This document shows, in pieces, positions 1 through 1,173 of a DNA stretch of 15,918 bases (its first letter is position 1; each line of letters starts with the position of its first letter). The translations under genes were made by a program, and so were the position numbers. The notes beneath the pieces were generated by a model that was not told where the DNA came from, did no database searches, and was given only the letters and a program-made list of their open reading frames with translations. Source of the stretch: PVC group bacterium (GTDB lineage Bacteria; GCA-001730085; JADFSZ01); assembly GCA_022560555.1 (NCBI GenBank), contig JADFSZ010000016.1, positions 1 through 15,918 on the forward strand, written 5' to 3'.

Positions 1-360
1 TTAAGAAGCGAAGGTCCTTTAGTGCCAGACTGGTTTTATTGGTTATTTAAAAAGAACTATGAGCTAGATATGCGATCGGTAGCTAATTCAATAAGCGATT
101 TAAAACCAGACTAATTTATTATTTAAATCTAGGCAAACCCTTCAGCACTTTGTCAAAGGCCTCTCCTTCGCTAAAGCTTCGAAGAGCAAGCTTGAAAAGA
201 ATTTGTGGGCGAAAAAATTTATTAAAAAGATCCTTTATTCCCCAAACGAAATTGCCTTAAATCTTTATTATCAAACAGCTTTTGACAACCCTTCCGATTC
301 ACTCCCGGCCAGAGGCTGCCCCCGCCCAGCCACTGGCCGAAATTCCAGTTCCACAGCTTT

Positions 361-394
361 AAAAAATGACAGCCCTATCAATATTGATAGGGCT
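361..394 (-). terminator. Rho-independent terminator downstream of the tRNA
   Basis: A perfect 24-nt palindrome, AGCCCTATCAAT|ATTGATAGGGCT (371..394), begins 12 nt after the tRNA 3' end. On the minus strand it is followed by GTCA and then TTTTTT (366..361). Confidence 0.6.
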
Positions 395-406
395 AATCAT
401 CATGAA

Positions 407-698
407 TGGCTCCCCCGGCAAGACTCGAACTTGCGACATCATGGTTACGATCTGACTCTAATTTCTTAGAGAGTCGGACTTTCTCTTTACCCGTTCACAA
501 TGAGTGAAGTAGGGTAGCGGGTGTAAAGTCTCTGCACTTGCCCTTCACAGTTTGTTAACCATGAATGCTAGCTCAGGATTGCCTTGGCCGTTGTCAGCTT
601 TAGGTTTCCCTGAATTAGCCCGCTTTTCATCTCAGTGTTTCCACTAAGAGCTGCTAACTTGTAACAGCCACGCGCTCTACCAACTGAGCTACAGGGGA
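407..698 (-). tRNA. tRNA-Asn(GUU), interrupted by a group I intron; exons 698..664 and 447..407
   Basis: Exon 1 is TCCCCTG TA GCTC AGTTGGTA GAGC G CGTGG CTGT. Exon 2 is TAA CCATG ATGTC GCAAG TTCGAGT CTTGC CGGGGGA G CCA. Joined, they give a 76-nt canonical cloverleaf. It has a 7-bp acceptor stem (one U-G), a 4-bp D stem and a 5-bp anticodon stem (one G-U). The anticodon loop is CU-GUU-AA, with a 5-nt variable loop, a TTCGAGT T-loop, discriminator G and an encoded CCA. From memory, the overall layout parallels E. coli tRNA-Asn. Confidence 0.9.
448..663 (-). ncRNA. Group I self-splicing intron (IC3-like), 216 nt, no ORF
   Basis: The intron starts UACAAGUUAGCAGC. GCAGC (654..650) pairs with exon GCUGU, with the U.G wobble at the 5' splice site (P1). 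The adjacent GUUA (658..655) pairs with the first 3'-exon bases UAAC (P10). The intron ends AGAUCG, with omega-G at 448. The core is readable by eye: P2 UCUUAGUG-GAAA-CACUGAGA; P3 GCGGG/CCCGC; P4 UCAGG/CCUGA around GGGAAACCUAAAG; P6 UUCAUGG/CUGUGAA; GUGCAGAGACU (P7 5'); P8 ACCC..UUCAC-UCAUU-GUGAA..GGGU; GUAAAGAGAAAGUCC (J8/7 and P7 3'); P9 GACUCU/AGAGUC. From memory, these blocks match the conserved strings of the Anabaena tRNA-Leu(UAA) and Azoarcus tRNA-Ile introns. Confidence 0.85.
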
Positions 699-729: not shown

Positions 730-758
730 ATCATATAATTCAAAAGCTTTTATATCAA
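730..758 (-). promoter_or_regulatory. Candidate sigma70-type promoter for the tRNA
   Basis: The minus strand reads TTGATA (758..753), a 17-nt spacer, then TATGAT (735..730). This lies about 30 nt upstream of the mature tRNA 5' end. The call rests on pattern match only, in AT-rich DNA. Confidence 0.35.
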
Positions 759-762
759 CTAA

Positions 763-926
763 GCTATGCCGAATGAAGCTGCCCGAGATGCAATGCTTCG
801 GCATCCTGTGCCGAATGAAGTTTTCTAGGACTGTTACTCTTCGGCATCCCGAAGCATTCCCCAAGCTGTTGCCTCATTCGGGAAAGTATCCTGCCCTAAA
901 CCGCTACATTCGGGACAGGGGAATAA
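763..926. repeat. Direct-repeat unit 1, 3' flank of the GIY-YIG gene; overlaps its last 7 codons plus stop
   Basis: Segment 763..806 matches 1193..1236 at 39 of 44 positions. Segment 907..926 (cattcgggacaggggaataa) is identical to 1260..1279. Internally the unit holds three tandem hairpin modules: ATGCCGAA-N23-TTCGGCAT (766..804), GTGCCGAA-N24-TTCGGCAT (808..847) and TCCCGAA-N23-TTCGGGA (847..883). Confidence 0.75.
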
Positions 927-1173
927 TACGATTACCTTGAATTAATTTTTCAATGAACGAATGACTTTTTTTCTTTTTAATCCATAATTCGGCTTTTCGT
1001 GCTTTACTTCGATTTTCATAAGTCTTCTTAAAAACAATTTTGATCTCTGCGTTGCGTTTTCCAAAAGCAGTCCTTTGTTTAGAATGATCGCATAATCTGC
1101 GATCTAAGTTGTTCGTTTCCCCAACGTAAAACTTCCCTGAAACAGCACTTTTTAATATGTAAAGATAATGCAT
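904..1173 (-). CDS. Small free-standing GIY-YIG (URI-domain) nuclease, YhbQ/UPF0213-like
   Basis: The 89-aa ORF carries YILKS..GKFYVGETNNLDRRLxxH, which gives the GIY and YIG strands plus the conserved Arg. It also carries ..ARKAELWIKKKK, the conserved Glu helix, laid out as in short YhbQ-type proteins. There is no extra DNA-binding domain. Confidence 0.85.
   Translation of the reverse strand: MHYLYILKSAVSGKFYVGETNNLDRRLCDHSKQRTAFGKRNAEIKIVFKKTYENRSKARKAELWIKKKKSHSFIEKLIQGNRIIPLSRM

Follow-up and report, generated by a model that had tools for sequence, protein, structure and literature searches.

Group I introns are known from the bacterial genes for tRNA-Leu(UAA), tRNA-fMet, tRNA-Arg(CCU) and tRNA-Ile(CAU), in which they are inserted at 34|35, 33|34 and, for the latter two, 36|37. 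These four classical classes are marked as IC3 in the database of group I introns to which Williams (bioRxiv 2020, 10.1101/2020.01.27.920355) refers. By scanning 80,413 bacterial genomes, the same preprint extended the list of hosts to 21 settings, and its seed alignment contains Pam37.Asn.4Ug as well as Tyr.4Ug, Asp.4Ug and Lys.4Ug. The label Asn.4Ug denotes a tRNA-Asn with an intron after the fourth nucleotide of the anticodon loop, a U before the 5′ splice site (U-1) and a G as last intron base (omega-G). For the tRNA-Ile intron of Azoarcus, self-splicing at 37 °C was described in a cryo-electron microscopy paper of 2026 (PMC13168695). Short "group I introns" were reported for cyanobacterial Arg, Gly and Lys tRNAs, but not for Asn (Mohanta et al., 2017), and the tRNAscan-SE 2.0 paper mentions fMet and Ile2 only. 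Literature searches for tRNA-Asn in combination with group I introns returned mitochondrial, chloroplast or unrelated papers only, and none that was relevant with respect to Omnitrophota. Here, a locus on contig JADFSZ010000016.1 of an uncultured PVC-group bacterium is described (15,918 nt; this whole stretch is referred to as the window), which, judged from its sequence, very probably encodes a functional tRNA-Asn(GUU) and is interrupted, between U35 and U36, by an IC3-like group I intron of 216 nt without an open reading frame (ORF).

Joining the minus-strand segments 698..664 (35 nt) and 447..407 (41 nt) results in a 76-nt tRNA-Asn(GUU) according to ARAGORN, as was claimed in an earlier note on this DNA. 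The joined tRNA folds into a regular cloverleaf with a 7-bp acceptor stem (including one U.G pair), the discriminator base G73 and an encoded CCA end. The identity elements of tRNA-Asn known from work in E. coli, namely G34, U35, U36 and G73, are all present in the spliced product. Run with default settings on the whole window, ARAGORN detected zero tRNAs, so this gene, the sole recognisable tRNA gene of the contig, would escape standard annotation. Applied to the unspliced sequence, the intron mode of ARAGORN proposed a tRNA-Thr(CGU) with an insert at 33/34. This candidate was rejected as an artefact of that mode, since the intron would end in U and lack an omega-G. Thus, of the tRNA check suggested in the earlier note, the spliced half returned the expected tRNA-Asn(GUU) and the unspliced half a false assignment. 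The junction 35|36 is the only one that combines U-1, omega-G and a 7-nt anticodon loop, which bears out the statement that no Asn anticodon exists before splicing. With the loop CUGU|UAA, U-1 and omega-G, the intron corresponds to the Asn.4Ug definition.

The group I character of the insert was verified by the Rfam model RF00028 (Intron_gpI), which matches positions 673..455 on the minus strand over its full length (1-253) with 83.8 bits (E = 1.8e-20; gathering score 50 bits) and is the only Rfam match of the window. The splice signals named in the earlier note can all be read in the sequence and are conserved in the homologues described below. The U.G wobble at the 5′ splice site is formed by U-1 (664) and G654 within P1, in which GCUGU|UA (668..662) pairs with UAGCAGC (656..650), and it is present in 25 of 25 aligned homologues. 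In P10, GUUA (658..655) pairs with UAAC (447..444) of the 3′ exon over 4 bp; this pairing is contiguous with P1 and invariant in an alignment of 26 homologues (A1). The guide GUUAGCAGC is therefore complementary to both exons in one contiguous stretch. The intron is compact and ORF-less as stated earlier: neither an ORF of at least 50 aa nor a Pfam family match was found in 448..663, so there is no intron-encoded homing endonuclease. The coordinates of all features are listed in Table 1.

Table 1. Features of the split tRNA-Asn locus and its surroundings in the window (all on the minus strand).
Feature	Position	Strand	Description and basis
Group I intron, ORF-less	448..663	-	216 nt; Rfam RF00028; homologous to 60 complete same-site introns; covariation
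tRNA-Asn 5′ exon	664..698	-	TCCCCTGTAGCTCAGTTGGTAGAGCGCGTGGCTGT; tRNA positions 1-35, ends with G34 U35; U-1 = 664; ARAGORN on spliced sequence
tRNA-Asn 3′ exon	407..447	-	TAACCATGATGTCGCAAGTTCGAGTCTTGCCGGGGGAGCCA; U36 to A76 including G73 and CCA; ARAGORN on spliced sequence
Internal guide	650..658	-	GUUAGCAGC; read from sequence; UAGCAGC (656..650) is the P1 part, GUUA (658..655) the P10 part
P2 hairpin	630..649	-	UCUUAGUG-GAAA-CACUGAGA; 8 bp, GNRA loop L2; minimum free energy (MFE) fold; compensatory changes in 7/7 aligned pairs
P3 5′ strand	619..623	-	GCGGG; partner CCCGC 521..517; 4/5 pairs changed on both sides; 100% of cells paired
P4-P5-P5a domain	573..613	-	P4 UCAGGG (613..608) / UCCUGA (578..573); MFE fold; P4 invariant
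P6/P6a	536..572	-	P6 GCU (572..570) / AGU (538..536); P6a UUCAUGGUU-AACA-AACUGUGAA (565..544), long, from MFE fold; one covarying P6 pair
P7 5′ strand	526..532	-	G-A(bulge)-GACUU; partner AAGUCC 481..476; G-binding helix, pseudoknotted with P3
P8 hairpin	488..516	-	UACCC..UUCAC-UCAUU-GUGAA..GGGUA; MFE fold; compensatory changes in 3/4 basal pairs
J8/7 and P7 3′ strand	476..487	-	AAGAGA and AAGUCC; near-invariant core columns in alignment A1; fits Rfam consensus AAGAUAUAGUC
P9 hairpin	456..471	-	CUCUAA-GAAA-UUAGAG; GNRA loop L9; compensatory changes in 5/6 pairs
3′ tail	448..455	-	UCAGAUCG; last base omega-G (448); G in 60/60 complete homologues
Promoter-like site	730..758	-	TTGATA-17-TATGAT; about 32 nt upstream of tRNA 5′ end; consensus scan, 10/12 matches; putative function
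Intrinsic-terminator-like hairpin	370..395	-	11 bp, followed by T run; 12 nt past tRNA 3′ end; terminator scan; putative function
Stand-alone GIY-YIG ORF	904..1173	-	89 aa; upstream of tRNA, same strand; PF01541, E = 1.7e-12

The single-sequence MFE fold recovers P1, P2, P3, P4, P5 and P8 with a z-score of -3.8, and none of 200 shuffled sequences was as stable. Within the P4 domain, P5 (CCU/AGG) and P5a (GCUG-ACAA-CGGC), together at 604..582, are enclosed by P4, and three of the four P5 pairs show compensatory changes. For the covariation analysis, the 26 compact homologues of alignment A1 were used, and P6 and the P7 pseudoknot were added to the canonical structure; unaided, RNAalifold recovers P1-P5, P8 and P9 from these homologues. 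Standard pairs make up 98.7% of the 1220 cells of P1-P9, compared with 32-48% if the partners are slid by one to three columns. Changes on both sides occur in 24 of 47 pairs, comprising 198 cells compared with 54 ± 8 in shuffled alignments, and none of 500 shuffles matched any of the observed covariation measures. The compensatory changes are mostly found in P2, P3, P5, P8 and P9, with one covarying pair each in P6 (columns 139-177; U-A 18, C-G 8) and P7 (U-A 15, A-U 10; the other five pairs are invariant). The catalytic-core strings CAAUCCUGAGC, GUGCAGAGACU and AGUCC are invariant in A1. In total, this is strong evidence that the group I fold is under selection across the family.

For the identification of relatives, one genome per GTDB species was searched with a pattern that combines the 5′ exon of tRNA-Asn with the guide core downstream of it (GTAGAGCNNNNGGCTGTN{3,18}TTAGCRGC). 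Of the 69 loci obtained, 67 are tRNA-Asn genes that an intron splits at this position as well. At 60 of these, removal of 184-624 nt between U35 and U36 restores a tRNA-Asn(GUU) in ARAGORN, and every intron ends in G; the other seven are broken by the end of the contig or locus, yet start with the same P1-P2-P3. The remaining two loci are chance matches of the pattern, one in Actinomycetota (L018) that is not a tRNA and one in a "Methanosarcinales" metagenome-assembled genome (MAG; L032) without an intron. According to the record titles, the 67 hosts comprise 23 Omnitrophota, 17 Clostridia, eight Planctomycetes, five "Gammaproteobacteria" MAGs, four Magasanikbacteria of the candidate phyla radiation (CPR), three Deltaproteobacteria, two Melainabacteria, one Spirochaetia, one Bacteroidetes and three unclassified bacteria. 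The same arrangement was found in three IMG/VR viral contigs and six metagenome contigs. As guides outside the pattern exist (e.g., GAGCAGC in L077), the number of 67 is a lower bound. Hence, the combination of host and site is not new and is common in several uncultured phyla. The earlier note had named the four classical hosts in accordance with the literature and had known of no characterised tRNA-Asn host. The latter holds in so far as none has been shown experimentally in the searched literature, whereas Asn.4Ug had been listed in 2020 and 67 more species are added here, which also answers its question about relatives with an intron at this site.

The RF00028 gathering score was reached by 17 of 20 homologous loci and by eight of 12 in a second batch (25/32 overall). 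This batch comprised viral contigs (one of three reached the score), metagenome loci (four of five) and four compact introns from GTDB genomes, all of them full-length by score. The homologues score between 56.6 and 94.4 bits, a range that includes the 83.8 bits of the window intron. Five short homologous introns of 184, 188, 190, 193 and 196 nt (L003:492-686, L005:3162-3360, L001:6221-6421, L054:541-744 and L027:5449-5655) match the full RF00028 model at 76-91 bits. Distance clustering of the profile columns revealed three main clades, one of CPR and "Gammaproteobacteria", one of Clostridia and a mixed one that includes the window intron and unites Omnitrophota, Planctomycetes, Deltaproteobacteria, Melainabacteria and Spirochaetia. 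The interleaving of phyla in the mixed clade suggests horizontal transfer or binning noise. The introns of three "Gammaproteobacteria" MAGs (L013, L038, L057) cluster with those of Magasanikbacteria (L048, L050, L068) and have almost identical termini, which is indicative of either recent horizontal transfer or errors in the labelling or binning of the contigs. Two further Rfam matches at the homologous loci, a fragment of group II intron domains D1-D4 at the locus edge (L009:1-47, minus strand) and a fluoride riboswitch located about 100 nt 3′ of the tRNA (L015:2930-2993, plus strand), are probably unrelated neighbours.

Following the established group I pathway, the locus would be transcribed as a single unit from the promoter-like site near 758-730 through the terminator at 395-370, whose hairpin contains a perfect inverted repeat (371-394). 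The intron would fold into P2-P9 with the P3/P7 pseudoknot, and by analogy to Azoarcus the GNRA loops L2 and L9 probably clamp this fold. The guide part UAGCAGC would draw the 5′ exon (G31-U35) into P1, where the U35.G wobble would define the 5′ splice site. P1 and P10 occupy the tRNA nucleotides 31-35 and 36-39, which requires the upper anticodon stem to be opened in the precursor, as is likewise the case for the pre-tRNA of Azoarcus (PMC13168695). The attack after U35 would be made by an exogenous guanosine that is bound in P7, and the guide part GUUA would align the 3′ exon (U36-C39) in P10. The omega-G (448) would then take the place of the free G, and the 3′-OH of U35 would attack after omega-G. 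Ligation of the exons would yield the 76-nt tRNA, so that the anticodon G34-U35-U36 would exist only after splicing. With G34-U35 locked in P1, queuosine at position 34 (Q34) and the modifications at position 37 would likewise be introduced only after splicing.

Several observations weigh against a functional split gene. The window is one whole 15.9-kb MAG contig, so the tRNA-Asn gene may have a further copy in its host and the contig may be mis-binned. No variation is seen in P1, P4 and most of P7, which makes them uninformative for covariation, and the invariance of P1 and the guide is partly due to the search pattern, which required both. The canonical 11-nt tetraloop receptors that Azoarcus has in P5 and P8 are missing, for which reason the proposed L2 and L9 contacts are drawn by analogy only. 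The nearest homologues of the window intron differ at about 24% of the core positions, so that its activity is deduced from the intact core and not from near-identical tested relatives. Finally, the searched literature contains neither experimental nor transcriptomic evidence of splicing for any tRNA-Asn group I intron. Nevertheless, the intron is in all likelihood splicing-competent in vivo, judging from its sequence features.

It is very unlikely that the intron is decayed and no longer spliced, the locus being a tRNA pseudogene and Asn decoding being served by another, intron-less tRNA-Asn. Redundancy does occur in some hosts: in three Clostridia MAGs (L007, L023, L045), the split copy is followed about 1.8 kb further downstream by an intron-less tRNA-Asn(GUU), which renders the split gene redundant there. 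In addition, seven metagenome loci have an intron-less tRNA-Asn in GIY-YIG contexts similar to that of the window (described below), and the inspection covered a single contig of the host genome. However, no second tRNA-Asn was found inside 8 kb in the Omnitrophota and Planctomycetes loci scanned. Moreover, both exons are flawless, the core is intact (U.G wobble, guide, P3/P7, J8/7 and omega-G), the Rfam score lies inside the range of the homologues, and the compensatory evolution across the family reflects selection for the fold. An assembly or binning artefact, in which a tRNA-Asn gene was chimerically joined to an unrelated group I intron, is extremely improbable. The contig does originate from a MAG, and seven homologous contigs or stretches (L022, L024, L031, L037, L047, L059 and L065) stop inside the intron or just past its start, which suggests that assemblers may struggle with such loci. 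Unlike in a random chimera, though, the guide is complementary to both flanking exons via P1 and P10, this co-adaptation of exons and intron is conserved, and the architecture was assembled independently in 67 GTDB species, six metagenome contigs and three viral contigs. It is unlikely that the intron, despite a genuine group I fold, fails to splice unaided in vivo, either because a protein cofactor or chaperone is needed or because GTP/Mg2+ gates the supply of tRNA-Asn. Many organellar group I introns need such a cofactor or chaperone, the Azoarcus-type receptors are missing from P5 and P8, and no more than 216 nt leave room for few peripheral stabilising elements. By comparison, to our knowledge, all bacterial tRNA introns of this architecture that have been tested self-splice in vitro (Anabaena Leu, Azoarcus Ile, Agrobacterium Arg and Synechocystis fMet), the Azoarcus intron doing so at 37 °C (PMC13168695). 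Furthermore, no conserved protein gene is tied specifically to the intron, the GIY-YIG family being tied to tRNA genes in general.

The latter family concerns a further alternative, termed collaborative homing, in which the GIY-YIG enzyme encoded upstream of the tRNA cuts intron-less tRNA-Asn genes and repair copies its gene, the tRNA and the intron together. Precedents are reportedly the cyanophage psbA intron with F-CphI and mobE of phage T4. In favour of it, GIY-YIG homologues occur eight times in 72 intron loci, in all eight cases directly upstream of the split tRNA-Asn, and direct repeats with copies of the tRNA 5′ end flank the ORF in the window. The majority of the intron loci, however, have no GIY-YIG gene. 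In addition, a protein-side metagenome scan, carried out with a four-sequence subset of the alignment as the first alignment was too divergent, revealed that the family (about 80-90 aa) is located directly 5′ of a co-oriented tRNA in 64 of 71 evaluable loci. Almost all of these tRNAs are intron-less, including seven tRNA-Asn, and they represent the isotypes Pro, Val, Asn, Asp, His, Ala, Gly, Ile, Lys and others. This adjacency to many intron-less isotypes links the GIY-YIG family to tRNA genes and not to the intron. Collaborative homing at this locus is thus highly improbable, and the GIY-YIG ORF probably does not belong to the intron system. It is also very unlikely that the ORF belongs to an undescribed mobile cassette whose free-standing endonuclease targets tRNA genes and, at tRNA-Asn, either co-mobilises the ORF-less intron or is blocked by it. 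If this were true, the cassette would be a bacterial chromosomal analogue of collaborative homing.

The loci of the GIY-YIG family are L004, L011, L012, L019, L031, L035 and L049 as well as L073-L152. The same tRNA is found on both sides of the ORF in L096 and L136, and in some loci the ORF runs straight into the 5′ end of the tRNA. In the window, the direct repeats around the ORF are located at 763-806 / 1193-1236, 901-926 / 1254-1279 and 691-703, and they hold two extra copies of the tRNA-Asn 5′ end and its leader ATTCCCCTGT, while several palindromic TGCCGAATGAAG units fill the 205-nt spacer that separates the ORF from the tRNA. The arrangement resembles an insertion that duplicated its target. 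No description of a tRNA-linked stand-alone GIY-YIG family was found in the searched literature, and the cassette may merit a study of its own.

Signs of mobility were found within the intron family itself. Two IMG/VR viral contigs (L070, L072) and a Romboutsia MAG (L008) contain an insert of about 400 nt in P6 of the tRNA-Asn intron, and the ORF of L070 matches PF11645 (PD-(D/E)XK; E = 9e-20), which we take to be the Pfam family that includes I-Ssp6803I. In two metagenome loci (L108, L140), the P1 loop contains an HNH-like ORF (..CANCHREIH). These homing-endonuclease ORFs in relatives indicate mobility within the family, and intron-less tRNA-Asn genes were found in otherwise similar contexts. 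The history of the family fits the usual course of gain, endonuclease loss and intron loss, with the window copy in the ORF-less state. The intron most probably descends from a family at tRNA-Asn 35|36 that is old, widespread and at times mobile, and its homing-endonuclease gene may have been lost after fixation, as in the usual cycle. The viral contigs carry the split tRNA-Asn within tRNA arrays. In a blastn search, annotated phage tRNA-Asn genes match the 5′ exon at 89-100% identity, and among cultured-phage records the 5′ exon alone was matched, with no homologue of the intron.

The other genes of the window are ordinary chromosomal genes, encoding an EngB-type GTPase, TauE, OEP/AcrB efflux proteins, NadE, TrpRS, ScpA/B and PheA. 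In a homology search, TrpRS proved identical to an NCBI protein from a "PVC group bacterium", and its next-best matches (64-68% identity) belong to Candidatus Omnitrophota, which places the host, an uncultured PVC-group bacterium, closest to Omnitrophota. An 88-aa ORF with a TTG start on the plus strand (203..469) was rejected as a gene; it has no Pfam match, its tblastn matches mirror the DNA conservation of the tRNA and the intron, and it is likely spurious. It is located antisense to the 3′ part of the intron, the 3′ exon and the terminator.

The scientific gain is modest: a class that so far was one line in a preprint table obtains a well-supported member and is described at the level of clades (Omnitrophota, Planctomycetes, Melainabacteria, Clostridia and CPR). 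Since standard tRNA finders miss the split gene, tRNA-Asn would seem to be absent from genomes of these phyla, and this apparent loss would lower tRNA-based MAG quality scores and mislead inferences on decoding. If the gene is the sole tRNA-Asn gene, the entire Asn decoding of the host would rely on ribozyme catalysis. The 205-nt intron of Azoarcus is often used as a minimal model. Beside it, the versions of 184-196 nt, which are full-length group I introns by score, could serve as minimal ribozyme models; a literature search on the smallest group I intron returned nothing.

For the comparison with known systems, 18 of the 26 sequences of the Williams alignment were used. Crude MAFFT identities range from 42 to 55% for all 18 seeds and are uninformative, and profile scores were used instead. 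Against the family profile, Sel1.Leu.3Ug scores best with 58.7 bits, which agrees with the closeness of the core to IC3 tRNA introns that had been noticed earlier, followed by Wba81.Asp.4Ug with 57.8 bits, while Azoarcus reaches 25.7 bits. The tRNA-Leu(UAA) intron (Leu.3Ug, IC3) likewise splits the anticodon (U34|A35) and has the strings CAAUCCUGAGC and GGUGCAGAGACU in common with the window intron, but differs in tRNA, splice position, guide, hosts (Cyanobacteria and plastids) and size (typically about 240-250 nt). Asp.4Ug and Tyr.4Ug (seeds Wba81 and Mba143) are inserted at position 4 after C32-U33-G34-U35 of a tRNA with a GUN anticodon as well; due to these common nucleotides, their guides share the ...GCAG core pairing with CUGU, whereas the tRNA and the P10 pairing with the 3′ exon are different.

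The Azoarcus tRNA-Ile intron is similar in being compact (205 nt compared with 216 nt; PMC13168695) and ORF-less, in its anticodon-loop host and in its P1-P10 set without P5abc. Both have GAAA loops on P2 and P9, a bulged A in P7 and a near-identical J8/7-P7 string (AAGnnAnAGUCC). Apart from the low sequence similarity, the Azoarcus intron differs in host and site (36|37, Ile2.5Ug) and in the P5 and P8 receptors CCUAAG...UAUGG, and its self-splicing is proven, whereas that of the window intron is predicted. Pam37.Asn.4Ug shares the host tRNA-Asn(GUU), the site 35|36, U-1, omega-G and the guide core UAGCAGCC with the window intron. Unlike the latter, it is 276 nt long, contains extra helices after P2 and within P7-P3 and belongs to a separate lineage (about 52% crude identity; 44 bits against the family profile). 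The preprint in which it is listed is purely computational, and its text does not include the clade of the window intron (Omnitrophota, Planctomycetes and Melainabacteria). With P2 present, P5abc absent, a short P9, a host split in the anticodon loop and Leu.3Ug as the best-scoring seed, the window intron shows the traits of IC3 and appears to be of the bacterial tRNA-intron type, resembling IC3.

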